The notes beneath the pieces are model-generated. The model was not told the origin of the DNA. It did no database searches and saw nothing but the letters and a program-made list of their open reading frames with translations. DNA of 64,000 nucleotides, taken from assembly GCA_963664305.2 (NCBI GenBank), contig CAXXLV010000001.1, forward strand, positions 832,001 to 896,000. The letters are read 5' to 3'. The position numbers were made by a program, and so were the translations under genes. The DNA comes from an uncultured Aliarcobacter sp. (GTDB lineage Bacteria > Campylobacterota > Campylobacteria > Campylobacterales > Arcobacteraceae). Shown here in pieces: positions 7,388 to 37,641 of this stretch (positions are counted from its first letter, which is position 1; each line of letters starts with the position of its first letter).

Positions 7388-7388
7388 C

Positions 7389-7421
7389 TCCACACAAACT
7401 GCACATAGTATTTGATAAAAT
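7389..7421 (+). promoter_or_regulatory. candidate response-regulator direct repeat plus -10 box of the copper efflux operon
   Basis: TCCACA-N5-TGCACA (11-bp period) followed by TAAAAT at 7416. Confidence 0.5.
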
Positions 7422-7449
7422 TTTTTCATAAATATTTCAAGGAGAAATT

Positions 7450-14133: not shown

Positions 14134-14141
14134 TCATTTAT

Positions 14142-14165
14142 AAAAAGCCTCTTTTGAGGTTTTTT
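14142..14165. terminator. bidirectional intrinsic terminator
   Basis: AAAAAGCCTC-TTTT-GAGGTTTTTT between convergent genes. Confidence 0.75.
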
Positions 14166-15522: not shown

Positions 15523-15537
15523 GAGAAGATAAAAGAG

Positions 15538-16800: not shown

Positions 16801-16809
16801 ACTAATTTC

Positions 16810-18024
16810 CTATTTTTCTAATGATTTTAAATATTTTTTTATATTTTTTGCAGCTTGTCTAATTCTTTTTTCATTTTCAATTAATGCAATTCTCACATAT
16901 TGGTCACCATAATGTCCAAATCCAATTCCAGGACTTACTGCAACTTGTGCTTGAGTTAATAATTGTTTAGAAAATTCCATACTTCCTAAGTGAGCTGCAA
17001 CTTCTGGGATTTTTGCCCAAATAAACATCGATGCATTAGGTTTATTCATAACCCATCCAGCATCTGCAAATGTTTCAAGCATTAAATCTCTTCTTTTTCT
17101 ATATTTTTCAACATGCTCATCAACACACTCTTGTGGACCATCAAGTGCAACAGTAGCAGCAATTTGAATAGGAGTAAACATACCATAGTCAAGCCATGAT
17201 TTAATTCTTTTTAATGCACCGATTAATCTTTCATTTCCAACGATACATCCAACTCTCCATCCTGCCATATTATATGATTTACTTAATGTAAAACATTCCA
17301 CTGCAACATCAAGTGCACCTTCTGCTTGGAAAATAGAAGGAGTTTTATATCCATCAAATGTAATATCAGCATATGCAATATCAGAGATGATATAGAATCT
17401 CTCTTTTTTTGCCATAGCTACTAATTTTGTGTAAAATTCTGGAGTAACTGTTGCACAAGAAGGATTGTGAGGAAAGTTAACAACAACAAATTTTACTTTT
17501 GGAATTGATTCATTAATTGTTTTTTGTAATCTTTCAAAGAATAAATCTTCATCAACTTTAAATGTATCATCAAATGATAATTCAAATTTATGAACAGCTG
17601 CCCCATTTAACATAAATGCATATGAGTGGATTGGATAAGTTGGGTCTGGAACAACAGCAACATCACCAACATTTACAACAGCTTGAACTAAATGAACATA
17701 ACCCTCTTTTGAACCCATAGTTGCACAAGCATGTTTATTAGGGTCTAAGAAATCTACATTATATTTTCTTTTATACCAATTACAAATAGCAAGTCTTAAT
17801 TTATAAATTCCAGCACTTGCACTATAACCATGATTTTTTGGTTTTGCAGCAGCTTCGATTAATTTATCTGTAATGTGTTGTGGTGCAGGACCATCTGGAT
17901 TTCCCATTGAAAAGTCAATTACATCTTCACCAGCACGTCTAGCTTCCATTTTAATATTATTTACTTCTGCAAACACATAGTTTGGAAGTCTTTTCATTCT
18001 TTCAAATTCAAATTCGTGGAACAT
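16810..18024 (-). CDS. class I PLP-dependent aminotransferase (AlaC / LL-DAP aminotransferase-like)
   Basis: MGNPD, NFPHNP, SDIAY, SKSYNMAGWRVG. Confidence 0.88.
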   Translation of the reverse strand: MFHEFEFERMKRLPNYVFAEVNNIKMEARRAGEDVIDFSMGNPDGPAPQHITDKLIEAAAKPKNHGYSASAGIYKLRLAICNWYKRKYNVDFLDPNKHACATMGSKEGYVHLVQAVVNVGDVAVVPDPTYPIHSYAFMLNGAAVHKFELSFDDTFKVDEDLFFERLQKTINESIPKVKFVVVNFPHNPSCATVTPEFYTKLVAMAKKERFYIISDIAYADITFDGYKTPSIFQAEGALDVAVECFTLSKSYNMAGWRVGCIVGNERLIGALKRIKSWLDYGMFTPIQIAATVALDGPQECVDEHVEKYRKRRDLMLETFADAGWVMNKPNASMFIWAKIPEVAAHLGSMEFSKQLLTQAQVAVSPGIGFGHYGDQYVRIALIENEKRIRQAAKNIKKYLKSLEK

Positions 18025-18030
18025 TTTATA

Positions 18031-18840
18031 CTACTCCTTAGTAATGTTAAGCCCATATTTTAAATTAGTTAGGCTATAAAAATCATCAATTTTGATATAT
18101 TTTGTATTATTCGGTACATCAAGTTTTAAACTTTTGTACAAACTATCTTTTTCAACAACTTCTATAATATTGAAATCATTGTCATAGAAGATTATACTTG
18201 GATACCAACTATTACCAGCATTTGGGTTTATTGTTATACTTGAAATATTTGCCACTTGAACAATATAAGGTTTAAGTGGTTTTCTTAACGATAATTGGTT
18301 TGTATTTATTAAATCTTCTGCTTTATAAATTGTAGAATTACTTGAATCTATATAGTAACTCCATTTATAATTTCCCTCTCTTTTAATATCAACAATATTG
18401 CAGTTTACACCCTGTAACTCTTGAGATAATCTGAGAGGGCTTATGGCGGCTGCGGTTTTTAATTTTATCATCCATTTAAGTTGATTATCTACAACAACTT
18501 CACCTTGTGTGATAAAATCTTGATAACCTAATACTCTTAATATATCATTTATATTTTTCATTGATTTTTTAGGATTTGAATTGAAGTAAAATGTTGCTTC
18601 AATATTTTGAACAGAATCTAAATTTAATTTTAATATCCCATTATTTGATAGTTCTTGACTAATTTTTGTGTAATCAAGTTGACCATTTTTATAGAAATTA
18701 CTAGAGTTTCTAAATATATGATTAATCAAATTTCTATGTGTATTATAATCTGCATTTCCAAGCAGATTTAAAACAGCATCATTTACACTTGCATAAGAAC
18801 TTATATATAATGAAATGATTAAAATTAATTTTTTTATCAT
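18031..18840 (-). CDS. exported hypothetical protein
   Basis: Signal peptide; inside co-directional run of genes. Confidence 0.7.
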   Translation of the reverse strand: MIKKLILIISLYISSYASVNDAVLNLLGNADYNTHRNLINHIFRNSSNFYKNGQLDYTKISQELSNNGILKLNLDSVQNIEATFYFNSNPKKSMKNINDILRVLGYQDFITQGEVVVDNQLKWMIKLKTAAAISPLRLSQELQGVNCNIVDIKREGNYKWSYYIDSSNSTIYKAEDLINTNQLSLRKPLKPYIVQVANISSITINPNAGNSWYPSIIFYDNDFNIIEVVEKDSLYKSLKLDVPNNTKYIKIDDFYSLTNLKYGLNITKE

Positions 18841-22739: not shown

Positions 22740-22816
22740 GCGTCTGTAGTTCAACTGGATAGAATGGCCGGTTTCGACCCGGTAGGTTGTGGGTTCGAAT
22801 CCTACCAGGCGTGCCA
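22740..22816 (+). tRNA. tRNA-Arg (anticodon TCG)
   Basis: Acceptor stem GCGTCTG/CAGGCGT, anticodon arm GCCGG-TTTCGAC-CCGGT, GTTCGAATCC T-arm, encoded CCA. Confidence 0.96.
22798..22816 (+). repeat. att core (tRNA 3' end copy)
   Basis: AATCCTACCAGGCGTGCCA. Confidence 0.92.
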
Positions 22817-22848
22817 CTATTCCTTAAAAACCCTTAAAATAAGGGCTT

Positions 22849-24012
22849 TCAAATACTCTCATTTTTTTTAGGTGTCAATTCGGTGTCTAATGGTGTCAGA
22901 ATTTTTTTAAAACAATTTCCGAAATTCATATTCTGAATTGGTATATATTGTGAATATTTTTCAAGAGTTATTTTTACATTTTCGTGTCCAGCAATTTTAC
23001 TCACATAGTTTATATCTTCCCCATTACTAATTAGAGTTGATATAAATGTTCCTCTTGTTTGATGTAGATTTCTATATTCTACATTTGCTTTTTCTATTAT
23101 TGGTATCCAAATTTGTTCTCTTATTTTTCCAGCTGAATGAAAATGTTTATTTGTTCTTGTTGTTAAAAATACAAATGAATTATGATTCCCCGTTATTATT
23201 TTTTGATTTTCTAAAAAAGGAATTAAAGGTTCTATTATTGGAATAATTCTCTTGCTTTTAGTCGTTTTCAAAATATCTTTTATTTGCCCGTTTACAATTT
23301 GTCTCTTTACTGTGATAGTTCTATTTTCAAAATCTATACAATCCCAAGTTAGACCTATACATTCTCCTATCCTTAATCCAGTCATAAAAAGAACGGCTAT
23401 TAAGTTTTTATCTTGATTGGTAGCCACTGATAAAATTTGAATTATTTCTTCCGTTTTAAAAGGTGTTAGTTCTATTCTTTTAACTTTTGATTGTTCAGTT
23501 TGTTTTATTGTTTTTACCTTTTTAATAGGATTTATTTTAATAATTTCATTTTCAATAGCATCTTCAAACATTGTATATAACAATCCCCTAATTTTTAAAA
23601 TATAGCTTTTAGATAATTTATACTCTTTTTGAAGATTGTTTTGCCATAAAGTAATTTCAGAAGGTTTTACTTTATCTAATGTTTTATGCCCAAATGTTTC
23701 CTTTATATATTTATCATAATTCTTTTGGTGTCCATATATAGTGCTTTGACATCTACCACCTTTGTGTAATTCAAAAGAAAAATTCATATATTCTTCAACA
23801 GTTGGAATTTTTTTGTTTTGGTTTAATTCTCCATTCATTAGTTTGTATTGTAATATAGGAAGAATTTCATTTTCTGCTTTTTTATAATTAGCTTTTGTAT
23901 TTTCCATTTCAAGAGGTTTTCTGAATCTTTTTCCATTAATTGTATAGTTTACCCATAACCATTCTTTTGTTTGCCCTTTTTTATTTTTTACTTGTTTTAT
24001 ATAGATATTCAT
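22849..24012 (-). CDS. tyrosine recombinase / site-specific integrase
   Basis: N-terminal arm-binding-like region; TGLRIGE, K, HQTR, AGH, EKY catalytic residues. Confidence 0.95.
   Translation of the reverse strand: MNIYIKQVKNKKGQTKEWLWVNYTINGKRFRKPLEMENTKANYKKAENEILPILQYKLMNGELNQNKKIPTVEEYMNFSFELHKGGRCQSTIYGHQKNYDKYIKETFGHKTLDKVKPSEITLWQNNLQKEYKLSKSYILKIRGLLYTMFEDAIENEIIKINPIKKVKTIKQTEQSKVKRIELTPFKTEEIIQILSVATNQDKNLIAVLFMTGLRIGECIGLTWDCIDFENRTITVKRQIVNGQIKDILKTTKSKRIIPIIEPLIPFLENQKIITGNHNSFVFLTTRTNKHFHSAGKIREQIWIPIIEKANVEYRNLHQTRGTFISTLISNGEDINYVSKIAGHENVKITLEKYSQYIPIQNMNFGNCFKKILTPLDTELTPKKNESI
22871..22897. repeat. candidate integrase arm-type sites (3x GGTGTC)
   Basis: GGTGTC at 22871, 22882, 22892; matching GGTGTC/GGTGCC pair at 30499 and 30510 near the other att. 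Confidence 0.65.
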
Positions 24013-24021
24013 TTTTTCTCC

Positions 24022-24342
24022 TTATGCTACATTTTCTAATATTCTATTTGCTAATAATTCATAATTTTTATTAGTTGTTTTATCTGAACACATTATCCAT
24101 TTATCAATTTCTGTTTTATCAAATATATTTTTCCTATGTTTTTTGTAATAGTGTAAGTCAATTACAAATTCTTCATCCTTAATCATATTTTTTATGCTCT
24201 CTTTGCTATATCCAATATATTCACTTAGTTCCTCTGTTGTTAACCATCGTTTTTCAATTTTATTCATTTCTCTATCTCTTAACAAAACTAATATGTTATA
24301 AATTTCTTGTATTTTTTCTAAATTTTCTAATGCTATATTCAT
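24022..24342 (-). CDS. excisionase-like HTH protein
   Basis: RWLTTEELSEYIGYSKESIKNMI...FDKTEIDKWI; directly upstream of integrase. Confidence 0.8.
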   Translation of the reverse strand: MNIALENLEKIQEIYNILVLLRDREMNKIEKRWLTTEELSEYIGYSKESIKNMIKDEEFVIDLHYYKKHRKNIFDKTEIDKWIMCSDKTTNKNYELLANRILENVA

Positions 24343-24367
24343 TATATTTCCTTTTTATATTGATTTA

Positions 24368-24530
24368 GTGTACAAAAATCTACACATTGCAAATAAAAAA
24401 TATATGTCAATAAAAGTGTAGAAAAATGTACATTGAAATTCTATAACGAATTTACTTAAGTGTACATTAAAGTACACAAAAAATAAATCTTTAAACATTA
24501 TTAATATAAAATGTGTACAAAAAAATACAC
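24368..24530. promoter_or_regulatory. four palindromic operators GTGTA-N8-TACA(C/T) in the divergent promoter region
   Basis: Copies at 24368-24385, 24416-24433, 24460-24477, 24513-24530. Confidence 0.8.
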
Positions 24531-24542
24531 AAAGTTTATAGA

Positions 24543-24947
24543 ATGATTAAAAAGAAAAAAGAAAGAAAAAAAGTTTTATTGAATGATTTTGATAGTGACT
24601 TATTAAATAAAAAAGAAATTAATGAACTATTTGGAATTTTAAAAGAATTAAAAGAAAAATTAAAATTTTACATAGAAAAAAATGAATTAGATAATAAAAT
24701 AAAAAATATTGATAATTTATATTCAATTACAATACAAGAAACTGAAAGAAATATTAGACTACTAGCAACCATTTTAGAATTAAAAGATAATGAAGAAGTT
24801 GAAAAAAAGATTTCATTGGTTACATTAGCATTAAGCGATAAAAAAACTGATAAATATTCAGAAATTATAAATCTAAAAAGAGCATTTTATTCTTATAGAC
24901 ATTTATTAATCACATTAGAATTTTTAAATCCAAATTTAAATGAATAA
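24543..24947 (+). CDS. hypothetical helical protein (possible element regulator)
   Basis: ORF track starts at GTG 24513, which lies inside operator 4; in-frame ATG at 24543 is the more likely start. Confidence 0.55.
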   Translation: MIKKKKERKKVLLNDFDSDLLNKKEINELFGILKELKEKLKFYIEKNELDNKIKNIDNLYSITIQETERNIRLLATILELKDNEEVEKKISLVTLALSDKKTDKYSEIINLKRAFYSYRHLLITLEFLNPNLNE

Positions 24948-24981
24948 TTAAACCTGACACTTTTAATTAAATAGGTCAAGA

Positions 24982-25019
24982 GTAAGCTTACAACTCACTT
25001 GCGTGAGTTTTCAGCTTAC
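24982..25019. other. hairpin: candidate rolling-circle origin or bidirectional terminator
   Basis: GTAAGCT-TAC-AACTCAC-TTGC-GTGAGTT-TTC-AGCTTAC. Confidence 0.55.
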
Positions 25020-25022
25020 GAA

Positions 25023-26312
25023 CTATATATTTTTTGAGTAAATTTTAAGAATTGTATTTAAAAAATTGTCTGAAATAAAAGGTATTTGAAAAAGATTTTT
25101 ATCACTTGTAAAACCATTTTTAATAATTGCTCTACCTTTTGTAAAATCTTGAATTTCTTTCGTAGAGATTCTTTCTCGAATATTATCTTTTAAATCTATA
25201 ATATTTATATTATTATCGTTTGCAGTTTTTAATAATACTCTTGATTGAATATTATTTGTAATTGCAGTTGGTAGAATGGTACTATCAATTTTTTGACCAA
25301 ATAAAAATAATAAGATTCCTGAGGCTCTTCCTTGCATAGCTATCAAAGAAAGCTTATTAAATATAGATTCACGAATTTTTTTATCAGGATAAACACTAAC
25401 AGCACCTATCTCGTCAAATATTAGTAATGTATATGTATCTATTTTTCTAATATTATTTTCTAACATATATTTTTGAGTAGATTCCAATTCTTTTAAAACA
25501 CTATCTAGTAATATATCTAGTTTTTCAATACTTGAAACAAACTCTACATTATCAATTTTTTCATATTGTTTTAATTCAACTCCACCTTTGAGGTCAATCA
25601 TATACATTTTATTAAATCTATTAGAATTATGTAAAAAGTTTATGTTAAAAAGTTGCATTAAATTTGATTTTCCACTCCCTGATTCACCTACAATTAGGTG
25701 GTGGTCTAAAGAATTTATATCTCGATAATAAAAGCCTTTTTCATATATTCCTAGGAATAAGTAATCTTTTTTAAATAAAGAAAAATCAATAGAATAAAAA
25801 TTGGGTAACTTATAAAATGATAGAACTACACTTTTATTTTTTTTTGCTTTTATACTTACTTCATAATCATTTGAAATAATCCCCAAATAATGCAGGATTT
25901 TTTCTTTATTTTTTCTATAAGTTTCTAAATCAATTGAAACTAAATTTGCATATTCAAGCTCAAACCTTTTTAAATCCTTTGTAAAAATTTCTTCCAGAAC
26001 ATTTTTTGATTTAATATTTTTTTTAGATATAAAGAAATCCAAAAATAGTGTTCTTTTATTTCGTATCTCAATTAAAGTGTTATGTGAAAACAAGCTATGA
26101 AAGTTAAGAGAATAAGGCATTAAAATATATTTCCAGTTCCACATATAATATATAGAAACCAATAAAGAAGATATAGTAATCATGATGTATAAAGAATCTA
26201 ATTCCTCTTTAAAATCTTTTGTTGATAAACTTATTGCTGTAACATACATTATAAAACAAAAGAAGCCCATTATTAATAGGCTTCGGAAATAACTTATGAT
26301 TCCGTATATCAT
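25023..26312 (-). CDS. membrane-anchored FtsK/SpoIIIE-family ATPase (TcpA/TraB-like)
   Basis: Two N-terminal TM helices; HHLIVGESGSGKS, IDLKGGVE, LIFDE, GRASGILLFLFGQK. Confidence 0.88.
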   Translation of the reverse strand: MIYGIISYFRSLLIMGFFCFIMYVTAISLSTKDFKEELDSLYIMITISSLLVSIYYMWNWKYILMPYSLNFHSLFSHNTLIEIRNKRTLFLDFFISKKNIKSKNVLEEIFTKDLKRFELEYANLVSIDLETYRKNKEKILHYLGIISNDYEVSIKAKKNKSVVLSFYKLPNFYSIDFSLFKKDYLFLGIYEKGFYYRDINSLDHHLIVGESGSGKSNLMQLFNINFLHNSNRFNKMYMIDLKGGVELKQYEKIDNVEFVSSIEKLDILLDSVLKELESTQKYMLENNIRKIDTYTLLIFDEIGAVSVYPDKKIRESIFNKLSLIAMQGRASGILLFLFGQKIDSTILPTAITNNIQSRVLLKTANDNNINIIDLKDNIRERISTKEIQDFTKGRAIIKNGFTSDKNLFQIPFISDNFLNTILKIYSKNI

Positions 26313-26572
26313 TTTAACATAGGCTCACTTTGTGTAAAAAAAAGTTTGTTTTCAAAACTTGAAACTTTAACTGGGATTTTTACTGTTAAACCTTCTTTAA
26401 TAGATAAAGTATCATTTTTATCAGTTAATTTTATTTGTTGAATTTCAACACCACCGTTATCATTTTTATTAAGGAATTGTACATATATAACTTCTTCTTC
26501 CTTATACATTTTCTTTGCCATTGCAAAAACTTGACCTGTTATAATTATTTTTGAATTCATTTTTTTCTCCAA
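26309..26572 (-). CDS. small beta-rich protein, putative ssDNA-binding (OB-fold-like)
   Basis: 87 aa with alternating beta-strand pattern, directly downstream of HUH Rep; fold is inferred. Confidence 0.5.
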   Translation of the reverse strand: MEKKMNSKIIITGQVFAMAKKMYKEEEVIYVQFLNKNDNGGVEIQQIKLTDKNDTLSIKEGLTVKIPVKVSSFENKLFFTQSEPMLK

Positions 26573-26575
26573 TAT

Positions 26576-27754
26576 TTAAATTTTTATTTTTATATATTTT
26601 TCTTTTTTATAAACTAATTCTTTATTTATAAAAATTTCTAACTTGTCAATATAATTGTGACAAGCACCTTTAACTGAAAATTGTGTGATATATTTAAAAA
26701 GAATTATGGAAGAATTTTTATTCACTAAAAATTGATTTATGTTAGTTTGCCCTTTTTGTTTAACAAACTTTATAATAGATATATTTTTTAAAATATAATA
26801 AAAAATACTTTTACCAGTTGATGAAGCTTTTTTTAATAGCTTATCTTTTTCATTCCTATCTATACTGTGATAAATAGTCCTATAATCACCTAAAGATAAA
26901 TCTAAGTTCGATGAAGTGATTATTTTAATTTTATTAACTCTTTTCCAGCCGTCAAGTAGTCGAGCTAAATAATAGTCTGAACCCGTTTTTAGAGACTTAG
27001 TTATATATTTCATTAAATATAATGCAGGTCTACTAATACCAGATTTAAATCTGATTTTTTCTAATTCTTTCTTATCAAAATGAACTAAGTTAAAATCGTT
27101 TTGATTCAACTCAAATTCATCTATAATTTTATCAAATTTTTCTCTTACTTTTTCACTTATGCTACTTTTTTTGTTTGTTATTTTTGAATTCTTTTTTTTA
27201 CTTTTTTTAACAATAGTTTCATCTTTTACATAAAGTAAAATGTGAACATGTGGAATTAAAGTTTTATGTATTTCAAATACTTTAATATAATAAAGTTTTT
27301 TTGAAATATTTTTTATTCTTTTATAAAAAACTCTAAATACATTATTTAAAAATTTGTAACCTTGCAATATTGATTCTTCTATACTTTTAAAATCAAAATT
27401 TTTATTTATGCTAGTGTATAATCTTCTATTTTTATAATTTATAGAAGAAAAAGGATGAAAATTTGAAGGTAAAGTAAAAGTAATAAATATAGGCATTAAA
27501 CCTTCTTCTTTTGCCAAATCTTCAATGCAAAAAATTTTTTGTTCTATTGATTTTATATATTTTTTATAATTATTATCAAAGGAATAATTAATATTTAGGC
27601 ATTCACCAGTTTTTTCGTTACTAAACAAATATTTTTTTAAATAATTTTGTTGATTTAACTCCTTCCGTAAAGATGTTTTATAGTAAGAATCTTTTAAAAA
27701 TTCATATTGACTGAATAAAGGTTCTTCTTGCAATTCTTTAGTTGCATATATCAT
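26576..27754 (-). CDS. HUH rolling-circle replication initiator (two-tyrosine type)
   Basis: Motif I FITFTLP, motif II PHVHILLY, motif III YLMKYITK, in Rep-class order. Confidence 0.88.
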   Translation of the reverse strand: MIYATKELQEEPLFSQYEFLKDSYYKTSLRKELNQQNYLKKYLFSNEKTGECLNINYSFDNNYKKYIKSIEQKIFCIEDLAKEEGLMPIFITFTLPSNFHPFSSINYKNRRLYTSINKNFDFKSIEESILQGYKFLNNVFRVFYKRIKNISKKLYYIKVFEIHKTLIPHVHILLYVKDETIVKKSKKKNSKITNKKSSISEKVREKFDKIIDEFELNQNDFNLVHFDKKELEKIRFKSGISRPALYLMKYITKSLKTGSDYYLARLLDGWKRVNKIKIITSSNLDLSLGDYRTIYHSIDRNEKDKLLKKASSTGKSIFYYILKNISIIKFVKQKGQTNINQFLVNKNSSIILFKYITQFSVKGACHNYIDKLEIFINKELVYKKEKYIKIKI

Positions 27755-28015
27755 TTAATTTTCTCTCTGAAACTCTTTCATGAAAATCATGAAGAGCCTA
27801 GAAGGAAAGAAGAGTTTTATTTTAAATTTTTAGTTTATTTTGCACCTTTATTTTAGATGTTATATATAGTTGTAAAAAAAAATATAAGTTTTTCTCTATT
27901 TATTTTATAAATAGGAATAAAAAAATTATGAAATAATAATTTTCATTGGAACTTTTAATATAATAATTGTTAGTATTGTAAAATATTAACGATATTAACC
28001 TAAGGAAATAAAAGC

Positions 28016-30481
28016 ATGATAAAAGCATTTTTATCTCATTCTTCATCGGATAAAGACAAATTTGTTAGAATAGTTGCCGATAAGCTAAAAAACAAACATG
28101 GAATTCACTATGATGAATATACTTTTGAAATAGGAAATAAAACAATTGATGAAATTTTAGAAGGTTTAGATAAAACTGATTTATTTGTTTTTTTTATTTC
28201 AGAAAATTCATTAGAATCAGAGTGGGTAAAAAAAGAAGTTTTAGTTGCAACAAATAATTTAGGAAATAGGACAAAACAGTTTTATCCAATTATTATTGAT
28301 AAAAACATTACATATAAAGATGAAAGAATTCCTGAGTGGTTAGTAAGTGAATATAATATTAAATTTGTAAGTAAGCCAACAGTTGTAGCTAAACGAATTG
28401 AACAAAAATTAAGAGAAATATCTCTTAAAAAACATCCAAAATTAATGAAAAAAAATAATTTATGTATAGGTAGAAATAAAATTCTTGAAAATTTTGAGGA
28501 AAGATTAGATAATTTTGAGAAAGCTCAACCTAAATGTATAATTGCAACGGGACTAGAATCAATTGGAAGAAGAACATTTTTAAAATATGCTCTTGTTAAA
28601 ACGGATATTATCAATCAATACTACACCCCAAATTCTATTTATCTTGATACAAATGATAGTATAGAAGATTTTATTTTAAAAATAAATGATTTTGGATTTT
28701 TAGATATTGATTCAGATTTATCAGATTTATTATCTAAAAATCAAGACTATAAAATAAATTTAGCAATTAATATTTTAAAAGAAATACAATCAAACAATGA
28801 AATTATTTTGATATTAGATAATGGTTGTATTGTAAATTATGAAAGAAAATTTTCTAATTGGTTTAGAAAAATAATTGAGTCTAGTGAATTAGATAATAAA
28901 GTTCTTATTTGTACTGCTTCAAAATATAAAGTTCATTATACTGAAATTAATAATGATGCCTTTTATTCGGAGCATGTTGATGATTTAACTCCATCTGAAA
29001 GAAAAAGATTATTTAAAAGATTATTAGAAATATATGATATTGAAATGGTAGTAGATGATTTTAACTATATAAGTGATACTTTCAAAGGTCTTCCTGAACA
29101 AATTTTATATTGTGTAGATTATATTGATAGAACTAATATAGAAACTGTGAAAAAAAATATTCATGAAATTAGAGAGTTTAATGATGAAAAAGCTTCAGCG
29201 CTTATTAAACATTATCAAGAAGATGAGTACATATTGTCTTTAATAAGATTAATTGCTCAATTTGAGATAATAAGCATAGAGTTTTTAAATGAGATAATAT
29301 CTGATGAAACAATTAATGAAATATTAGAAATATTAGTTACAGAAAATATTTGTGAATATTTTGGTTATGATGGACAATTTATCAGAGTAAATGATTCCAT
29401 TAGAGATTATATAATTAGGAATAGATTAAAAATAAAAGAAGAATATTTAACTAAAATAAAAACACATGTTTCAGCATTTATTCGTTCTGATGAGAAAATT
29501 GAAAAGGATTCTAGTGATTATTTGTTTTCTTTAAAACAAGCATTATTAGAAGGTGAAGAAATTGATGAAAATTTATTATTACCATCCCATTTTTTAAGAA
29601 CAATGAAAGATTTATATCATAATGGAAGTTTACAGAAAGTAATCGATTTAGCATATAAAGTTTTAGAGAAAGAAGAGTACATTGATTATTATTTAGCAAA
29701 TGATATAAAATACTATTTGTGTTTAGCTTTGGCAAAAAAAAGAGATAAAAGAGTTTTAGATGAAGTTCAAAGAATTAATGGTGATCAACATAATTTTGTT
29801 TTAGGATATTATTACAGATTAATAGGAGAATATACAAAAGCAATAGATAGATTGAAATCTATAGTTGATTCACAATATATAAAAGCAAGAGCAAAGCGAG
29901 AAATTGTACATTGTTATATTCAAACAGAAGGATATTCAAAAGCCCTTAGTTTTGCTAAAGATAATTATATAGAGAATAGAAATTATATATATCATGTTCA
30001 ATTATATTTTTATTGTCTAATTTATAGTGATAAAAGTTTTGAAAATAAAGAAGAACTTAGAAGAATTACTATTGAGTTAAAGAGATTGAGTGTGGAATCT
30101 AATATGGATATGGGAGACAGAGCAGAGGCTCTTTATCTAGCAAAGTGTGAGAATAAAGAAGAAGAATCATTAAGATTAATAAATGATGCAATTGCAAAAT
30201 ATCCAGATAGTTATTACCCGTTATTAACTAAATTTGATATTGCACTTAAATTTTATAATATAAATGAAATGGAAGATTGTATTTTAAAACTTGAAAAATT
30301 TAATGGTAAAACTTTATCTAAAAAAACATATACTAAACAAAAAGCATATTTTATTGCATTAAAAGAGAAAAATGCAACGAAAGCTAAACAGTTAATTATT
30401 GATGATTTAAATAAATATCCTCAGGAAGCAAAAGATTTGATTTTAGAAAAAATTGATTATTTAGCAAATAAATTAAAATAA
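28016..30481 (+). CDS. TIR domain - STAND-like NTPase - TPR-like protein, candidate anti-phage defence
   Basis: AFLSHSSSDK...FISENSLESEWVKKE TIR; IGR...GLESIGRRT P-loop-like; ILILDN Walker B-like; helical repeats at the C-terminus. Confidence 0.8.
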   Translation: MIKAFLSHSSSDKDKFVRIVADKLKNKHGIHYDEYTFEIGNKTIDEILEGLDKTDLFVFFISENSLESEWVKKEVLVATNNLGNRTKQFYPIIIDKNITYKDERIPEWLVSEYNIKFVSKPTVVAKRIEQKLREISLKKHPKLMKKNNLCIGRNKILENFEERLDNFEKAQPKCIIATGLESIGRRTFLKYALVKTDIINQYYTPNSIYLDTNDSIEDFILKINDFGFLDIDSDLSDLLSKNQDYKINLAINILKEIQSNNEIILILDNGCIVNYERKFSNWFRKIIESSELDNKVLICTASKYKVHYTEINNDAFYSEHVDDLTPSERKRLFKRLLEIYDIEMVVDDFNYISDTFKGLPEQILYCVDYIDRTNIETVKKNIHEIREFNDEKASALIKHYQEDEYILSLIRLIAQFEIISIEFLNEIISDETINEILEILVTENICEYFGYDGQFIRVNDSIRDYIIRNRLKIKEEYLTKIKTHVSAFIRSDEKIEKDSSDYLFSLKQALLEGEEIDENLLLPSHFLRTMKDLYHNGSLQKVIDLAYKVLEKEEYIDYYLANDIKYYLCLALAKKRDKRVLDEVQRINGDQHNFVLGYYYRLIGEYTKAIDRLKSIVDSQYIKARAKREIVHCYIQTEGYSKALSFAKDNYIENRNYIYHVQLYFYCLIYSDKSFENKEELRRITIELKRLSVESNMDMGDRAEALYLAKCENKEEESLRLINDAIAKYPDSYYPLLTKFDIALKFYNINEMEDCILKLEKFNGKTLSKKTYTKQKAYFIALKEKNATKAKQLIIDDLNKYPQEAKDLILEKIDYLANKLK

Positions 30482-30517
30482 AAATCTATAATTCAATTGG
30501 TGTCAAATTGGTGCCTT

Positions 30518-30584
30518 TAAATACCATTTATTAGCTTCATAAAATATAATTAATATTTTAGGAGTAATGACTAAATGGTATTTA
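30518..30584. repeat. long imperfect inverted repeat inside the element's right end
   Basis: TAAATACCATTTA (30518-30530) / TAAATGGTATTTA (30572-30584), inner TAAAATAT/ATATTTTA. Confidence 0.7.
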
Positions 30585-30609
30585 TTAGTTAAGAGTTCGA
30601 TTCCTATAA

Positions 30610-30628
30610 AATCCTACCAGGCGTGCCA
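30610..30628 (+). repeat. att core (distal duplicate of tRNA-Arg 3' end)
   Basis: AATCCTACCAGGCGTGCCA identical to 22798-22816. Confidence 0.92.
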
Positions 30629-31070
30629 TTTTTAAATCTAACACAATCCAAGATAGTCTATAAAATCCCGATAAAATCAAGCTTCTTGTTAAATATTAAT
30701 CTAACTTATGCTAATGTAATCTAATTAAATATAGAAAAAATTAGGGCGTTTGTTAGGGCGTAAGCCAAAAATATTGAAATTATCAAAAATTTATGCCCAG
30801 ATATTTTAATAGAACATTGTAAATACAGAAGTTAAGAGGATATTCAAAAATCTTCAAACTATTTCTATTTATTTTTTTATTTATATTATTCTAAAAAATG
30901 AAAATTTATGAATATTTAATTATTAATTGTAATATTAGATTATTTAATTATTTTTGAATAAATAAGCATTCAAAAATGTATTTAAAAATAATTAGTTTTA
31001 AGTTTTTCTTTAGTGTATCTTGTGTTAGAATATATCCCAAGTTAGAAAAACTCTAATTCAAGGATAATAT

Positions 31071-31619
31071 TTGCCATATCTTGTTTCATCAATAATTGCA
31101 ATTGTTTCAGCTTTAATAATTTTACTTACTAGATATGAAGCTGATGACAGTACAATAACAAGTGAACTTGATAGAATGAAATCTATGTTTATAACAATGG
31201 ATGGATTTGTAAATACTTATATTCAATCTGGTGGAACTTTATCAAGTATAAATTTTGAGGAATTGGATAAAGCGGGTATTTTATTATCAAATATGGAAAT
31301 AACTCCAGTAGCAGATACAAATTCTAGTACTGGTGAAAATAAAACTACAACAAAATTTCCAAATAGTGAAGTGATTTGGCAAATTATACCAAATATAAAT
31401 GACACTAGTTCATATAAACTTTTAGTAGATATGTCAAAAGCTAGTGCATTGATGAGTAAGGCTATTTTCTCAGAAAGTTTCTCAGGTCGAGAATTTTGTG
31501 AAAAGATGCTTTTTGGTACATTTGATCAAAATGGAAGTGCATATGTTGAGGGAACAAAAGATTTTGGAACAACAGGCACAACAAAAGACGGAATTTTTGT
31601 TTGTATAGTTTTTAAGTGA
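31071..31619 (+). CDS. pilin-like protein without class III leader
   Basis: TTG start after AAGGA; N-terminal hydrophobic helix MPYLVSSIIAIVSALIILL, amphipathic helix, C-terminal Cys pair. Confidence 0.6.
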   Translation: MPYLVSSIIAIVSALIILLTRYEADDSTITSELDRMKSMFITMDGFVNTYIQSGGTLSSINFEELDKAGILLSNMEITPVADTNSSTGENKTTTKFPNSEVIWQIIPNINDTSSYKLLVDMSKASALMSKAIFSESFSGREFCEKMLFGTFDQNGSAYVEGTKDFGTTGTTKDGIFVCIVFK

Positions 31620-31700
31620 TTTTTGGTGCAACTAAAATAATAGTTGTTGTATAATAGGGCGGTTGGTAGGTAAACTTAAATTTAATAAAGGGGAAAGAAA

Positions 31701-32399
31701 ATGCCACAGTTGATAGCTATGATTATCGTAGTAGTTGGAGCAATGATTTATATGTTCCAAACATTTGGAGGAACTGGAGATAAAATCGAAGGTATTGCAC
31801 AAAAAACAAGTATTATTACTGAAATTAATAATATAAAAGATGGGGTTAAAATCGCAGCTAAATCAGAGCAAATTGCAAGTACAGCATCAGGTGATAAAGT
31901 TAACACTTTAGAGGGATTAGCAGCTCTTTCATATTTTGCAGAACAAATTAATACACAATTAACTGATACAAATAATAATGCAAATAATGCAAATATATAT
32001 AATGCTATTTCATTTGGTGGTGGAGTTGTATCTGCTGCAACAAATACTAGTGATATGCAAATTTCTTTAGTAGCACCAGCTGCAGTTGGTACTGTAAAAA
32101 GAGTACCTGGAATATTTGTAGATTTTTCTAAAGGTGGTTTATCTTCAAATGCTGCATTTTTAGAATCACAAATAGCAAGTGATTTAGCTGCTGTAGCTTA
32201 CATAGATAGAACAGCAACAAGTGCTACAGCAAAAAGTGGAGTAATTAGTTCAACAGGTTCATCTATTGAACAACGAACACCTGCTATTGGTACTGTAGAT
32301 GCTGATGGGAAGCCTGTTGATCCTACAGCTGCTCAATTAGGTGATGGAATGTTCATTCTTTATTTTAAAGATTTTGGTTCAGACGAAGTAGTTCAATAA
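31701..32399 (+). CDS. putative major pilin-like subunit without class III leader
   Basis: MPQLIAMIIVVVGAMIYMFQTFGG plus long amphipathic helix, Ala/Ser/Thr/Gly-rich head; TATAAT at 31650, strong RBS, downstream hairpin. Confidence 0.65.
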   Translation: MPQLIAMIIVVVGAMIYMFQTFGGTGDKIEGIAQKTSIITEINNIKDGVKIAAKSEQIASTASGDKVNTLEGLAALSYFAEQINTQLTDTNNNANNANIYNAISFGGGVVSAATNTSDMQISLVAPAAVGTVKRVPGIFVDFSKGGLSSNAAFLESQIASDLAAVAYIDRTATSATAKSGVISSTGSSIEQRTPAIGTVDADGKPVDPTAAQLGDGMFILYFKDFGSDEVVQ

Positions 32400-32424
32400 T
32401 ATTTAGGCTTTTGCCTAAATATTA
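32397..32424 (+). terminator. perfect 12-bp stem after putative major pilin gene
   Basis: TAATATTTAGGC-TTTT-GCCTAAATATTA followed by T-run. Confidence 0.75.
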
Positions 32425-32501
32425 TATTTTAAAAAACAAAACCTAAGTGCTAAGTATTAGCATTTACTTTTTGTTTTACTCTTAAAAAAGGTTTTTTTCT
32501 A

Positions 32502-33236
32502 ATGTTGGGAAATATATGGCTATCATCGGCACTTATTGTTACAGCTATATTTTCTGCAGGTGCTATGTATAAATCTTATAGTGATATTCAAGAAGCAAAA
32601 CAAATCCAAGAACATTATGAAATAATCTCTGAAATCAAAACTTTATTAGCCAAGCAATACAATAAAAATCCAGATGAAATAACACGTGATGATATTATTG
32701 CCAATTTACCAAAAGGTGAAAACTGGGGAAAAGTTCTTCTTCTTGATAGAAATAAAGATAGCAATCTTTCTAATAAAGAGTTAGTAAATGAAACTGGAAA
32801 TTTTGAGATAAGTGAAGATGAAAAGTTAAAATTACTTGCACTAAAAGCAAAACTAAAAGATGTTATTGATGTAACTTCAATTGAACCAGTTGATAAAAAA
32901 TATACTTTTGAAGTTGGGAAAGTTGAGAAAAATAGAGTATTAAATGATATTGATATTGAAGAAAATTTAACAAAAGCAATACATTTTTTGGCAGATGAAA
33001 TCTTATATAATACAAGTTCAAATAAAGAAACTACATTGAATGCAATTTTAGATGAGTTTACCCCTTATGATAAGCTTTATTTTGATTTTTTAAATAATGG
33101 CGAAACTTCGATTAGCGAACAAACGTTAAAAGATAGGAAAAAAGCTTATTTTAAATCAAGAATAAAAGATAGACTTTATAAAAATGAGAATGCACTTGAA
33201 ACAAGACTTTATAAAGAGTTGAAAGATATATTATGA
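32502..33236 (+). CDS. minor pilin-like / N-terminally anchored protein
   Basis: N-terminal hydrophobic helix followed by amphipathic helix; inside type IV filament cluster. Confidence 0.5.
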   Translation: MLGNIWLSSALIVTAIFSAGAMYKSYSDIQEAKQIQEHYEIISEIKTLLAKQYNKNPDEITRDDIIANLPKGENWGKVLLLDRNKDSNLSNKELVNETGNFEISEDEKLKLLALKAKLKDVIDVTSIEPVDKKYTFEVGKVEKNRVLNDIDIEENLTKAIHFLADEILYNTSSNKETTLNAILDEFTPYDKLYFDFLNNGETSISEQTLKDRKKAYFKSRIKDRLYKNENALETRLYKELKDIL

Positions 33237-33958
33237 AGAAAATTTTATTTATTTTATTTTTATTGATTAACTCATCTTTTGCTTTAGATTTAACTAATTT
33301 TGAAGATAGACAAAGTGCTCTTCAAGATGTAAAAACAATCATCTTATATGAAGAATCAATAGCAAAAGCTTATGAAGAGTATATTTTAACAAACTACAAG
33401 TTTCCAACTCTTGCTGAAATAAAAACATTGATAGGGAATTTAACTTTAGTAAATAATGTAAATTCAAATATAGCTTTGAGTAGTACATTGACAAAAATCT
33501 CTTATGGTTTAAATAGTGATTTAAAAGCTGATACTTCAATAAAAGCTTTATATGAAAGTAATACATATAGAAAAAGAACTTATGTTAGGAATGATGAGGT
33601 AAACTTTATTTTAGAAGATGAATTTGCGAAACATTTATATGATTTAATCAAACAAAATGGTGGCGCAATTCAAGATTGTCCAACGACAGCATTTACAACA
33701 GCTGTAAATTGTAAAGAGAATAATCATATTTATATTAAATTGACAAAAAAACTTGATGGTTTAGAAGTTGTTCCAAATACATATTTGATAGCATATCATG
33801 TTGATAATTTTAAAAATGGACCGATAATTATTACAAACGATACTTCAAAACATATTACTGAAAATGCTTTCGATTCTATACCAAAAGGTGCTTTGTTATA
33901 TGACATTGACGGTGTAAAATATGTAAAAACTTTAGATGGAATAGAGATTTTAAAATGA
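33233..33958 (+). CDS. exported protein with pseudopilin-head-like domain (paralog 1)
   Basis: Sec signal ending SFA; EESIAKAYEEYILTNYKFPT; LYESNTYRKRT. Confidence 0.6.
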   Translation: MKKILFILFLLINSSFALDLTNFEDRQSALQDVKTIILYEESIAKAYEEYILTNYKFPTLAEIKTLIGNLTLVNNVNSNIALSSTLTKISYGLNSDLKADTSIKALYESNTYRKRTYVRNDEVNFILEDEFAKHLYDLIKQNGGAIQDCPTTAFTTAVNCKENNHIYIKLTKKLDGLEVVPNTYLIAYHVDNFKNGPIIITNDTSKHITENAFDSIPKGALLYDIDGVKYVKTLDGIEILK

Positions 33959-34719
33959 TTAGACAATTTATACTTTTGATTACAATTTTAATATCATCTT
34001 TTTCACAAGATACATTAACAGCTCAAAAACAAAATACTTTATATATTCAAGATTTGATTCAAATAGAAGAGAATATCGCAAAAAATTTTGAAAAATATAT
34101 TTTAACTGAATATAAAATTCCAACAATAACAGATTTAATAGATGATAACTATTTAGGAAGTAATTTTTCTGTACTAAATAGAATGGGTGAAAATATTGAT
34201 TTTAAAGATAGTTCAAAATTACAACTAAAATATGCAATTACAAAAGATGAATATAGAAAAACAAGAGATGAAAATCTAGGAATTGAAAATTTTTTAGTTC
34301 AACTTTACAATAGAGATTTATACAGAGATTATACGACAGTTTTTAGTGATGATACTGATGTAAATAATATGTACGTTGAGTTTGAGCTAAAATCCGATGA
34401 AGCAAAAAATATATTTGATTTATTAAAAAATGGAAATAGTATTGCAAAAACTTGTGTTGCATCACTAAAAAGTACTTATTGCAACAATAATGATAGAACA
34501 ATTAGATGGTATAACGCTAGTTCAAATTGGATTGAATATGATAAAAAAGATTTTAATAAAGGGAATATAACAGTTAGTAGTGAAAGTATTTTAACTTCAG
34601 AAACAACAAAACTTTCAAATTTAAAAGTTGGTAGTTATATCTATATAAAAGATAAAACAAAAAATGTAAAAATGATAGATGATTCTTCTGGAAATTTACA
34701 AATTCTAAAGGTGGATTAA
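33955..34719 (+). CDS. exported protein with pseudopilin-head-like domain (paralog 2)
   Basis: Sec signal; EENIAKNFEKYILTEYKIPT...NYLG; LYNRDLYRDYT. Confidence 0.6.
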   Translation: MIRQFILLITILISSFSQDTLTAQKQNTLYIQDLIQIEENIAKNFEKYILTEYKIPTITDLIDDNYLGSNFSVLNRMGENIDFKDSSKLQLKYAITKDEYRKTRDENLGIENFLVQLYNRDLYRDYTTVFSDDTDVNNMYVEFELKSDEAKNIFDLLKNGNSIAKTCVASLKSTYCNNNDRTIRWYNASSNWIEYDKKDFNKGNITVSSESILTSETTKLSNLKVGSYIYIKDKTKNVKMIDDSSGNLQILKVD

Positions 34720-37641
34720 ATCAAAACTCTAATTTTTATAATCATATTTTTTAATTTTGTTTTTGCGTCAAGTGAAAATATATCATTGATGAATAATGTA
34801 AAATCTCTTATTCAAAAAGAGGAATATATATCATTAGCATTAAATAAATATATTTTACAAACAGGAAAAATTCCTAAAAAAAGTGATGATACAATAGATT
34901 GGGATAAATTAGAAGTTAAAGACTATTTAGGAACAAATTTTAATAAAACAAATCCTCTTACTTCAAAAGATATTGTAATAACTTTTGATGATAAAAATAG
35001 TGCATTTATTAAAGGTGCTATCGAAAAAGAGACAGATTATAATGAAGAGTATAATTATCTATATAATTTTTATACGAATAAAGTATTTAGAGTAAATACA
35101 ATTCCTCCAAAAAATATTTCTAAAACAGAGTTGGTAAAAGGTTCCCTTGTTTTATATAACTCTTTACAAAAAGAGATAGTTTCTGTTTTAACAAAAGGAG
35201 ATAATTCTATATTTTTACCTTCTCAAAGTTGTAATTCAGGACAATATTTTTATGAACTAAAAAATGAAAAATTAATCTACAAATATTGTAAAACAGCAAG
35301 CAATTCTATAGAAGTTTATCAAAAGGCACCAGTTTATTTAGATAATTTAGATGATTTAGCATATATAAAAGTGGGAATAGGTGAAAAAGCTTATGTAAAA
35401 GATGGAAATTCTTGGTATGAGTATTATTATGAAGGAAATAATACATGGATACCATCAGGAACAGGAAGAACAACAGGGCAAGTAAATGATGAAATAAGTA
35501 TAGGAGATAGAATTTTATCTTATATTCCTGATGCAAAAGATTTGCTTTTAAGACGTGATGGTGGCTGTATGTTAGCAAATGGTGATATTTTTTGTTGGGG
35601 AAATAATCAATATAAAAAAGCAGGAATACAAAGTTATGGGCAATTAGATAAAACTTTATCTCCTGATTATGTTAATACACCTGTAATGTTAAAAGTTCAA
35701 ATAGAAGATATTAATACAGGAACAGAAACATTAGATTTAATAAATAAAAAATGGTACAACAATCCATATAGAATAAAATTTGAAAAAATGGCAATGAATA
35801 GTAGTAATGTTTGTGCTATTTCACCTTTATTTAATTATTTTGATAAAGTTCAAAAAAAGTTTGGTGGAGATTTATATTGTAATGGACAAATTTCACAAAT
35901 GTATTTTGAAAATATTAGTTCAACTGTAAGTGAAACTTCTATTTTAAGTAAAAATAAATTTTTTGGATGGGGAAAAAGTGATCAGACTGATGATAGTCCT
36001 AAAACTATCAAAATATCTGATGATGGAGGACCAGTTATAGAAGATGGTTCAGGTAATGAATTAATGATTACAAGAGATGAAATCTATTTAACAGATATTG
36101 TAATGGTTGAAGATACAATTGCTGTTTTATCTGATGAAGGAAAAATTTATACAATAGGAAGAAACTATAAAGGTGGATTAGGTATAGGAAGTAGTGATAA
36201 ATTTATTGTTCAGTTAACTCCAGAAGAAGTAAAAAGTAATGGAGCAATATTTAAAAAAATATTTGCATTAAGAGATACTGCGATGTTTGGTGCAATAGAT
36301 AGTAATAACTATTTTTATATTTGGGGTGAAAGACCTAATGGTACAGTTTATTATGAGCCAACACTTGTTAGTAGTTCTTTAAAATTTAATCCAGATGGAA
36401 TTTTTACAAATAGTAAAGATTTTCTTTTAAAGGGAGTTGATAATAACTTTTATAGAACAGTTGGAAATAAAGAACTAAGTCTTGTAAGTGAAATTCCAAG
36501 TAGTGCAGTTAGTGCATCAATCTATGATAATAATTCTCAAGAATTATATGTATATGTAAATGATAGTATGCAGTTATTTGGAAGTAGTGATTTTTTAACT
36601 TGTAAAACAACTACAGCAACAAACTGTACAACAACAGATAATAAAATTTTTACAACTGCTTTGGATGAGTTAAATACTTTTTCAAATAATTTTAATGGAA
36701 AAGATTATGCAAATTTTTCAAATATTTCAATTTATCAATTAGACACTGTTAAATATGAAATTTTTGAAGATTTTGAAGATGGAAAATCAACAGGATGGGA
36801 TGGAAGTTCAGTAAATAAAAGTTCTGGAAAAATTAGGGTAACTTCTGTAAGTGATGATGGTACAGATGAAATACCTGTAACAAAATTTTTAGGTAGTTTT
36901 AATATTGAAGAGGTTGAATATGGAAGTCAACCTCCAATAAATTATACAAATAAACCTTCTTATATAGAAAAAACATTCTCTATAGGGACAAGTTATGCAA
37001 ACAATGAAGTTGAATTGGAATTTGACTTTTATGAGATTGATACTTGGGATTTTGAAAGATTTACTGTAACTTTAAATGATGTAGTTTTTGTTGAAGATGA
37101 TTTTATACATGATAACCATCCTTATCTTTCTGATATAAATGATACTGGAGAATCATTACAAAAAGTTGGTTCTTCAGGAAGTTACAATAACGATAATGAT
37201 GAAAAATATCATTATAAAATAAAAACAAAATTAGATTCTTCTGGAAAATTAAAAGTTAGATTTAGTACAAGAGGTTTAAAAAGTACGGATTATGGTTATA
37301 ATGGTTGGTCTTTCGCTCAATCAAGAGGTGATGAATCATGGGGAATAGATAATGTACATGTGAAAGTAAAAGAGACAAGTAAAACTTTTGTATGTGCAAT
37401 GACAGGAATAGGTAGCCAGTCTCAAATGTATTGTTGGGGAAATGTTGGACGAAGTATACCAATTTTAAGCACATCTTTATATGATGTAAGTAAAATAAAT
37501 ACTATAAATAAGTTATTTATTTCTCAAGAAAGTGATAAGACTTCTCAAATGGCTTTTGATAATTTTAATAACAATGGGAATTTATTTCTAAAATATCCAA
37601 CTTATATCGGGGGATTCGATTATGCATTTTATTTTAAATAA
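34720..37641 (+). CDS. large exported protein: pseudopilin-head-like domain, RCC1-like repeats, inserted beta-sandwich; putative tip adhesin
   Basis: ORF track starts at 34786, but frame is open from ATC 34720 encoding (I/M)KTLIFIIIFFNFVFA; GDIFCWGNN, GKIYTIGRN, QMYCWG repeats. Confidence 0.65.
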   Translation: MKTLIFIIIFFNFVFASSENISLMNNVKSLIQKEEYISLALNKYILQTGKIPKKSDDTIDWDKLEVKDYLGTNFNKTNPLTSKDIVITFDDKNSAFIKGAIEKETDYNEEYNYLYNFYTNKVFRVNTIPPKNISKTELVKGSLVLYNSLQKEIVSVLTKGDNSIFLPSQSCNSGQYFYELKNEKLIYKYCKTASNSIEVYQKAPVYLDNLDDLAYIKVGIGEKAYVKDGNSWYEYYYEGNNTWIPSGTGRTTGQVNDEISIGDRILSYIPDAKDLLLRRDGGCMLANGDIFCWGNNQYKKAGIQSYGQLDKTLSPDYVNTPVMLKVQIEDINTGTETLDLINKKWYNNPYRIKFEKMAMNSSNVCAISPLFNYFDKVQKKFGGDLYCNGQISQMYFENISSTVSETSILSKNKFFGWGKSDQTDDSPKTIKISDDGGPVIEDGSGNELMITRDEIYLTDIVMVEDTIAVLSDEGKIYTIGRNYKGGLGIGSSDKFIVQLTPEEVKSNGAIFKKIFALRDTAMFGAIDSNNYFYIWGERPNGTVYYEPTLVSSSLKFNPDGIFTNSKDFLLKGVDNNFYRTVGNKELSLVSEIPSSAVSASIYDNNSQELYVYVNDSMQLFGSSDFLTCKTTTATNCTTTDNKIFTTALDELNTFSNNFNGKDYANFSNISIYQLDTVKYEIFEDFEDGKSTGWDGSSVNKSSGKIRVTSVSDDGTDEIPVTKFLGSFNIEEVEYGSQPPINYTNKPSYIEKTFSIGTSYANNEVELEFDFYEIDTWDFERFTVTLNDVVFVEDDFIHDNHPYLSDINDTGESLQKVGSSGSYNNDNDEKYHYKIKTKLDSSGKLKVRFSTRGLKSTDYGYNGWSFAQSRGDESWGIDNVHVKVKETSKTFVCAMTGIGSQSQMYCWGNVGRSIPILSTSLYDVSKINTINKLFISQESDKTSQMAFDNFNNNGNLFLKYPTYIGGFDYAFYFK

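Follow-up and report, generated by a model that had tools for sequence, protein, structure and literature searches.

The stretch of DNA considered here comprises 64,000 nucleotides of an uncultured Aliarcobacter sp. (positions 832,001 to 896,000 of contig CAXXLV010000001.1, assembly GCA_963664305.2) and is called the window below. Its gene at 28016-30481 raises the question of whether it encodes a new variant of anti-phage receptor or a member of a known family. A first-pass annotation made from the sequence letters described the product as a receptor composed of a TIR domain, an NTPase and tetratricopeptide repeats (TPR), possibly a subtype in which a lysine-to-arginine exchange in the P-loop alters nucleotide handling. 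The open reading frame (ORF) starts with ATG and specifies 821 amino acid residues plus a stop codon. Translation placed WVKKE at residues 70-74, CIGR at 150-153, GLESIGRRT at 179-187 and ILILDNG at 264-270, so that the ORF and all motifs listed in the annotation were recovered exactly. Judged by its sequence, the gene is an intact orthologue of the named, phage-tested and structurally solved TIR-NLR family, residing on a different mobile carrier. The best explanation overall, to which we assign a probability of about 0.8, is a receptor with a TPR sensor, a STAND/NB-ARC-like switch and a TIR NADase effector which acts by abortive infection.

The assignment was obtained with the PADLOC model for TIR-NLR (PDLC03015), which matched residues 1-818 on model positions 1-822 of 824 with 772.1 bits (E = 2.4e-232). 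This end-to-end match upholds the general description of the protein as an anti-phage TIR-STAND-TPR receptor. Because it is a clean, full-length match to a named system, the claim of novelty falls. A homologue search in which 7999 candidates were scored yielded 600 matches at E ≤ 1e-3, which chance cannot account for. The 120 homologues listed (E ≤ 3.8e-190) are nearly all 815-830 residues long and stem from Arcobacter, Halarcobacter, Acinetobacter, Klebsiella, Vibrio, Pseudomonas, cyanobacteria and many metagenomes; the closest named homologues among the matches listed belong to Arcobacter and Halarcobacter. Twenty-nine of the 120, picked for named or diverse sources, were aligned and converted to a profile. 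This profile matched the PDB entries 9m0n and 9umd with 1311.9 bits over residues 1-821. The two entries contain 10 chains of one sequence ('Tetratricopeptide repeat protein', 824 residues) and constitute the solved structure of the TIR-NLR family. When the central domain alone (residues 131-480) was compared with the PDB by sequence, only 9m0n was found (281 bits). Across the approximately 400 residues visible, the 9m0n chain is the pFR90 protein tested by Rousset.

K. pneumoniae SB5442 carries a P4-like satellite whose one-gene TIR-NLR system was cloned and blocks phages (Rousset 2022, PMC9122126). In the literature it also appears as Rst_TIR-NLR. The protein from the window shares approximately 44-45% identity with this tested homologue (P0080, P0115). 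Both proteins have nearly the same length (821 versus 824 residues), the domain order TIR, STAND and TPR and a G-x-G-R-R-[S/T] P-loop, and both are encoded by a single gene on a small mobile element. They differ in the host, here an AT-rich bacterium from the Arcobacter group, in the carrier, which is a tRNA-Arg element with rep and ftsK and not a P4-like satellite, and in the second residue of Walker B, which is asparagine here and aspartate in the Klebsiella protein. The literature search turned up no mechanistic study of a bacterial TIR-NLR and no paper behind 9m0n/9umd, which may nevertheless be in print. TIR-NLR goes unmentioned in the text of a preprint surveying STAND proteins (PMC12803255). 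PMC11350192 describes 'TIR-II' proteins with TIR and TPR, about 30% of them with an ATPase domain, for which no escaper phages were obtained; these may overlap with the TIR-NLR family.

The gene is present as a single copy in the source genome, as judged by a profile search that reproduced the full-length TIR-NLR match. A decaying or inactive copy is highly improbable, since the frame is open over its full length, the profile match runs from end to end and every invariant column of the 29-sequence alignment is kept, including E74, G184-R185-R186, D268, G358/P360 and R457/N459/D460.

The only Pfam domain of the 821-residue protein is TIR_2 at residues 5-97 (E = 5.6e-15), which contains the WxxxE glutamate noted in the first-pass annotation. 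This glutamate, E74, is invariant in the 29 aligned sequences and in 65 of 65 genome loci, and the WxxxE motif was found in 117 of the 120 listed homologues. The closest solved TIR structures are the NADases Cat1 and AbTIR. The NCBIfam search gave only a match at the level of the TIR domain to the retron-TIR model (46 bits versus a cut-off of 600). Among the PADLOC models those for ThsB gave weak matches to the TIR domain (E = 3e-7 and 0.0064). The latter similarity is compatible with a different output, in which the TIR domain would produce a signalling nucleotide (an isomer of cyclic adenosine diphosphate ribose or a related conjugate) to switch on another effector encoded elsewhere in the genome, as in Thoeris, and would not kill by depletion of NAD+. 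Bacterial TIR domains are known makers of signals, as stated in PMC9122126. The same study reports that, as a lone gene, the K. pneumoniae homologue is active in a foreign host. ThsB is a stand-alone TIR protein paired with ThsA, whereas no ThsA-like gene and no other candidate effector was detected on the element with Pfam and PADLOC. Moreover, the ThsB matches are far weaker than the TIR-NLR match. We consider production of a signal by this protein very unlikely.

The remainder of the protein was characterized by structure prediction. An AlphaFold2 model calculated from the 29-sequence alignment reached a mean predicted local distance difference test score (pLDDT) of 85.5 and a predicted template modelling score of 0.84. 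Pfam searches of residues 131-480 at E ≤ 10 revealed no NTPase family (NB-ARC, NACHT or AAA_16) and only a chance match to a beta-galactosidase family. In the model, the same region is predicted to have the nucleotide-binding domain, helical domain and winged-helix fold of STAND/NB-ARC proteins. The top Foldseek matches were STAND proteins, namely 6mfv (E = 1.3e-8), Avs3, SAMD9, RPP1, Apaf-1, MalT and CED-4; 9m0n was absent from the matches to this fold library, which holds entries released up to 2026-04-08. Superposition of residues 146-473 with VIA-align on the NB-ARC of tomato NRC1 (8bv0) gave Z = 17.6 with a root-mean-square deviation of 3.7 Å over 302 residues, followed by NRC2 (Z = 16.9), Apaf-1 (Z = 16.4) and MalT (Z = 15.5). 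The long helical repeat region seen in the first-pass annotation is likewise present. The C-terminal approximately 320 residues are helical, with paired helices throughout the model, and residues ~500-821 superpose on the TPR proteins APC3, Pex5 TPR, Rap, NprR and MalT-TPR (Z = 14-17.7 for APC3, Pex5, Rap and NprR). For the K. pneumoniae homologue, PMC9122126 lists in Table S3 the HHpred matches TPR_MalT at residues 528-809 and AAA_35 at 99.7% probability.

The best overall fold match is the archaeal STAND-TPR protein 6mfv (VIA-align Z = 18.5 over 536 residues). It has the same order of STAND and TPR, but it lacks a TIR effector and shares only 13% identity. The Avs (AVAST) proteins, with which the first-pass annotation had proposed a comparison, also combine an effector, a STAND module and a repeat sensor. 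Avs3 (8dgc), Avs4 (8dgf) and Avs5 (9jap/9nc9) were matched at the level of the fold with E values from 1.4e-7 to 2.7e-4. However, Avs effectors are nucleases or SIR2 domains instead of TIR, and no Avs profile was among the PADLOC matches at E ≤ 0.01. The plant proteins RPP1 (7dfv), NRC1 (8bv0) and NRC2 (8rfh) and Apaf-1 resemble the predicted protein in an N-terminal TIR with catalytic glutamate (plant TIR-NLR), the NB-ARC-like fold (Z = 16-18) and a G-x-P at the GLPL place. They differ from it by a leucine-rich repeat or WD40 sensor in place of TPR, by a lysine where the P-loop has arginine and by a histidine where the MHD place has asparagine. The predicted protein gave no match to Pfam NB-ARC at the level of the sequence.

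In the model the unusual P-loop occupies the loop formed by residues 179-184 between the strand and the helix given in Table 1. A canonical GxxxxGK[S/T] motif was found nowhere in the 120 listed homologues. G-R-R-[T/S/A/R] was present in 114 of them (GRRT 100, GRRS 12, GRRA 1, GRRR 1), four contained GRSS (2), GRSA (1) or GRKT (1), and in two N-terminally shorter sequences the P-loop region was missed by the search slice. G184-R185-R186 is invariant in the 29 aligned sequences. A scan of genomes, with one genome per species, found 198 relatives; 70 loci were retained, among them 69 with an alignable ORF and 66 that include the P-loop. Position 184 is glycine in all 66. Position 185 is arginine in 64 and lysine in two, and because of this rare lysine we read R185 as the equivalent of the Walker A lysine. 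At position 186, the Ser/Thr place, arginine predominates (R 50, K 9, S 5, Q 1, N 1), and position 187 is threonine in 35, serine in 24 and another residue in seven loci. Even among the 20 most distant loci (22-36% identity) position 185 is arginine in 18 and lysine in two. Between Campylobacterota, Cyanobacteria and Acidobacteriota, and at identities as low as 22%, the pattern G-x-x-G-x-G-R-[R/K]-[S/T] is kept. GVGRRS is the version in the validated K. pneumoniae protein itself. The conservation of GRRT proposed as a check was therefore found, whereas the subtype had to be rejected because the arginine P-loop is common to the whole family, including the validated protein, and to the wider clade.

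The two loci with lysine at position 185 (L059, GIGKKQ; L061, GIGKRR) are the sole relatives with lysine at this place, and both lack Ser/Thr at the following position. Loss of the Ser/Thr may therefore predate the exchange of lysine for arginine.

Other positions of the pocket were compared in the same sets. The Walker B aspartate D268, at the end of strand 264-268, is conserved in 29 of 29 aligned sequences and in 62 of 66 loci, and G270 in 29 of 29. The residue following D268 is variable (D 61, N 27, E 22, S 2 of the 120 listed homologues). After strand 298-302, at the place of the TT/SR sensor, an A-S-[K/R] motif has K/R in 43 of 66 loci. G358 and P360 of the G-x-P motif at the GLPL place are present in all 66 loci. 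[LVI]ND was found at the MHD place in 103 of the 120 listed homologues; R457, N459 and D460 are invariant in the 29 aligned sequences, and the position of the MHD histidine (N459) is asparagine in 42 and histidine in one of the 66 loci. The names GLPL, MHD and hhGR and the place of MHD follow the NB-ARC/STAND literature, and the TT/SR sensor follows PMC11897194. All these motif equivalences, including that of MHD, rest on the secondary-structure topology of the model and not on residue-level superposition.

Taken together, these columns suggest a strongly constrained pocket which probably still accommodates a nucleotide, arginines having taken the place of the lysine. Binding is likely because G184 (66/66), the Walker B aspartate (62/66) and A-S-[K/R] (43/66) have been kept. 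Arginine stands in for lysine, the +1 position is not Ser/Thr and the second Walker B residue is free to vary; therefore the nucleotide would serve as a co-factor or switch for which hydrolysis is not needed, and it is unlikely that hydrolysis matters for the central module. For comparison, EfAvs5 is reported in PMC11897194 to bind ATP without hydrolysing it; its Walker A is canonical (K379/S380) in contrast to the arginine P-loop here, the exchange K379A abolishes defence, and the arginine of its TTR motif is said to read the gamma-phosphate.

The same columns may be read more radically, namely that the central module is a pseudo-NTPase which takes up no nucleotide and acts solely as a ligand-driven scaffold, the arginine P-loop marking a lost switch. 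Family and output would be unchanged. Such a loss would fit the complete lack of canonical P-loops in the 120 listed homologues, the range of residues at the +1 position (R/K/S/N/Q) and at the second Walker B residue (D/N/E/S), the single histidine at the MHD place in 66 loci and the lack of any Pfam NTPase model at E ≤ 10. However, the P-loop glycines, R185, the Walker B aspartate and G-x-P are tightly constrained down to 22% identity, which would be odd for an empty pocket; an arginine can still bind phosphates, and the sensor-like A-S-[K/R] position is largely kept. We regard an empty pocket as rather unlikely. As a tentative and broader suggestion, which we find somewhat doubtful, the TIR-NLR clade may represent a natural, ancient class of STAND receptors that gave up both the Lys/Ser-Thr P-loop and the MHD histidine. 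Its switch would differ from that of textbook NLRs, either by hydrolysis-free binding via arginines or by a ligand other than ATP/ADP.

For the receptor with TPR sensor, STAND switch and TIR NADase we consider the following course of events the most likely. The TPR array would bind a phage-made protein during infection. This would release autoinhibition, and the central STAND/NB-ARC-like modules would assemble into an oligomer in which neighbouring TIR domains would meet and build composite active sites. NAD+ would then be hydrolysed by the TIR domains, and the infected cell would be halted before the release of phage progeny. In the central module, a bound nucleotide would most likely act as structural co-factor or switch, with no dependence on its hydrolysis. 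Trigger, oligomerisation, NAD+ depletion and the role of the nucleotide are the parts that we infer. In PMC9122126 the authors propose sensing by TPR, NTP-dependent oligomerisation and degradation of NAD+ by TIR, and we count the 10 chains in 9m0n/9umd in favour of oligomers.

Several observations weigh against this explanation. The K. pneumoniae homologue is the only one for which phage resistance has been demonstrated, and the passages of PMC9122126 seen present depletion of NAD+ by TIR-NLR as a proposal and not as a measurement. The trigger may differ from that of the tested homologue, because the identity amounts to only ~44-45% and the TPR region is the most variable one. Confidence in the model is lowest for the TIR domain (block pLDDT 55-80). 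With arginine for lysine in Walker A, no Ser/Thr at +1 and asparagine where MHD has histidine, the pocket could be one that binds no nucleotide at all. Finally, the neighbourhoods of homologues were scanned in 21 loci with full 10-kb flanks, covering 154 ORFs of at least 200 residues within ~6 kb. A PADLOC match at E ≤ 1e-15 was found in nine of the 21 loci and none in 12, and only three are clear named systems.

These three are AbiE together with a retron-type reverse transcriptase (L013), a type II restriction-modification system (L018) and a SIR2-pAgo pair with Hachiman (L037). The other matches are candidate PDC families (L031 and L038) and four partial or ambiguous ones (mad2, mad3, dGTPase and WYL). 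As these descriptive counts have no baseline, no enrichment in defence islands is claimed. In L037 the homologue, from Bacteroidota, lies between the SIR2-APAZ/pAgo pair (5938-9056) and a complete Hachiman HamA/HamB (14096-18041), a textbook defence island.

A 7.8-kb integrative element in tRNA-Arg(tcg), whose features are collected in Table 1, carries the TIR-NLR gene as its main cargo.

Table 1. Features of the TIR-NLR gene and of its carrier element (positions in the window)
Feature	Position	Strand	Basis or remark
TIR-NLR gene	28016-30481	+	PADLOC PDLC03015, full-length match
TIR effector domain, residues ~1-140	28016-28435	+	Pfam TIR_2, conservation of E74
WVKKE with presumed catalytic Glu74	28223-28237	+	Translation and alignment
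Central STAND/NB-ARC-like module, residues 146-473: predicted nucleotide-binding domain, helical domain, winged helix	28451-29434	+	AlphaFold2 model, fold matches
Non-canonical P-loop GLESIGRRT, residues 179-187	28550-28576	+	Between strand 174-178 and helix 185-195
Walker B-like ILILDNG, residues 264-270	28805-28825	+	D268 and G270 invariant
GLPEQ, residues 358-362, at NB-ARC GLPL place	29087-29101	+	Start of helix 360-372
RVND, residues 457-460, after winged-helix hairpin	29384-29395	+	R457, N459 and D460 invariant
C-terminal TPR-like helical repeats, residues 499-818, presumed sensor	29510-30469	+	Model, VIA-align
tRNA-Arg(tcg), integration target	22740-22816	+	ARAGORN
attL, last 19 nt of tRNA-Arg(tcg)	22798-22816	+	Repeat family D12
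Tyrosine integrase	22849-24012	-	Pfam Phage_integrase (E = 1.6e-21), SAM-like and Arm-binding domains
HTH_17 excisionase-like protein	24022-24342	-	Pfam HTH_17 (E = 4.8e-7)
orf144, 144 residues, GTG start, Lys/Glu-rich	24513-24947	+	No Pfam or PADLOC match
FtsK/SpoIIIE-type ATPase, putative DNA translocase or coupling protein	25023-26312	-	Pfam FtsK_SpoIIIE (E = 2.9e-13), canonical GESGSGKS
orf87, conserved small backbone gene	26309-26572	-	Between rep and ftsK in 10/10 sibling loci
Rep, rolling-circle initiator like phage GPA	26576-27754	-	Pfam Phage_GPA (E = 9.7e-13)
attR, exact 19-nt copy of tRNA 3' end: AATCCTACCAGGCGTGCCA	30610-30628	+	Repeat search

Empty sites were found in three genomes of the same genus (G010, G042 and G033), in which the homology of the left flank ends at 22816-22818 and resumes at 30913-30996. 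The GC content of the element is 0.228 compared with 0.282 and 0.261 in its flanks. The 7.8-kb element is probably mobilisable. A megablast search of the whole element against plasmids gave no match. The first-pass annotation correctly had the TIR-NLR gene transcribed away from rep, because rep lies on the minus and TIR-NLR on the plus strand; the two genes diverge across a 261-bp spacer. A promoter and terminator scan found 30 promoter-like sites versus 26.5 expected and no terminators, and is uninformative in this AT-rich DNA. The annotation had further called the gene the only cargo. It is the only recognisable one, but orf144 is a second non-backbone ORF, so that TIR-NLR is not provably the sole cargo. 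No counterpart of orf144 was detected by tblastn in the 10 sibling loci described below; this ORF could be spurious, encode a regulator or represent a second accessory gene.

Of the 184 genomes of the taxonomic family, 39 contain Rep homologues. The 10 best Rep loci were fetched as a selected, not a random, set. The order rep-orf87-ftsK is syntenic in all 10. Two of them also carry the integrase, with 82-84% identity and at the same tRNA, and att repeats were recognised in three. Together with the element in the window (22817-30628), the loci L085:1138-7819, L092:4682-14526 and L091:7123-12883 form a family of compact tRNA-integrated elements of 5.8-9.8 kb with variable cargo. Relative to int-xis, L085 and L092 have the replication/transfer module in the orientation opposite to that in the window. 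L092 further encodes proteins of 437, 424 and 257 residues without Pfam or PADLOC match, which could have accessory or defence roles that escaped recognition. Two more Rep homologues, with weaker matches (31-34% identity over the N-terminal half), lie on the other contig of the source genome (G000 C2:1573301-1573774 and C2:1256253-1256741) and point to further related elements in the same genome.

Among the 15 non-backbone ORFs of the three delimited sibling elements, PADLOC gave no convincing match (best E = 3.4e-5, partial). Pfam detected Sel1 repeats, an OMP beta-barrel, helix-turn-helix and integrase domains, and the rest had no match. The cargo is swappable, and the copy in the window happens to carry a defence gene. 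The idea that the cargo slot is a defence hotspot is not supported with the PADLOC and Pfam models, as the sibling cargo contains no recognised defence genes.

The location of the gene on an integrative element would also suit a gene that mainly serves its carrier, by excluding competing phages or elements or by stabilising the island, with protection of the host as a by-product. The validated homologue resides on P4-like satellites, and according to PMC9122126 it also reduced P2 and P4 transfer. Such a role is compatible with defence, and the unrelated cargo of the sibling elements indicates that the slot is not dedicated to exclusion. We consider it unlikely that service to the element is the main role.

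To the right of the element, a same-strand gene run without Pfam match extends over 31071-37641 (+). Its first two products begin with a hydrophobic segment and resemble pilins only in appearance. The last gene encodes a 951-residue RCC1-like repeat protein, for which RCC1_2 and RCC1 scored just above the cut-off, while WD40_RLD, with a cut-off of 150 bits, reached 40. Congeners keep the cluster beside tRNA-Arg.

The gene itself has little discovery value, the TIR-NLR family being already catalogued, validated and structurally solved. Such genes are under-annotated without PADLOC-type models or structure prediction, because nothing but the TIR domain is recognised by Pfam and NCBIfam, to which the STAND module stays invisible. 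The arginine P-loop is a clade-wide signature usable to recognise TIR-NLR receptors, and it poses a defined biochemical question concerning the use of nucleotides in an NLR-like switch. For the Arcobacter group, the compact tRNA-Arg element family with its swappable cargo slot is a further vehicle of defence genes beside the P4-like satellites.

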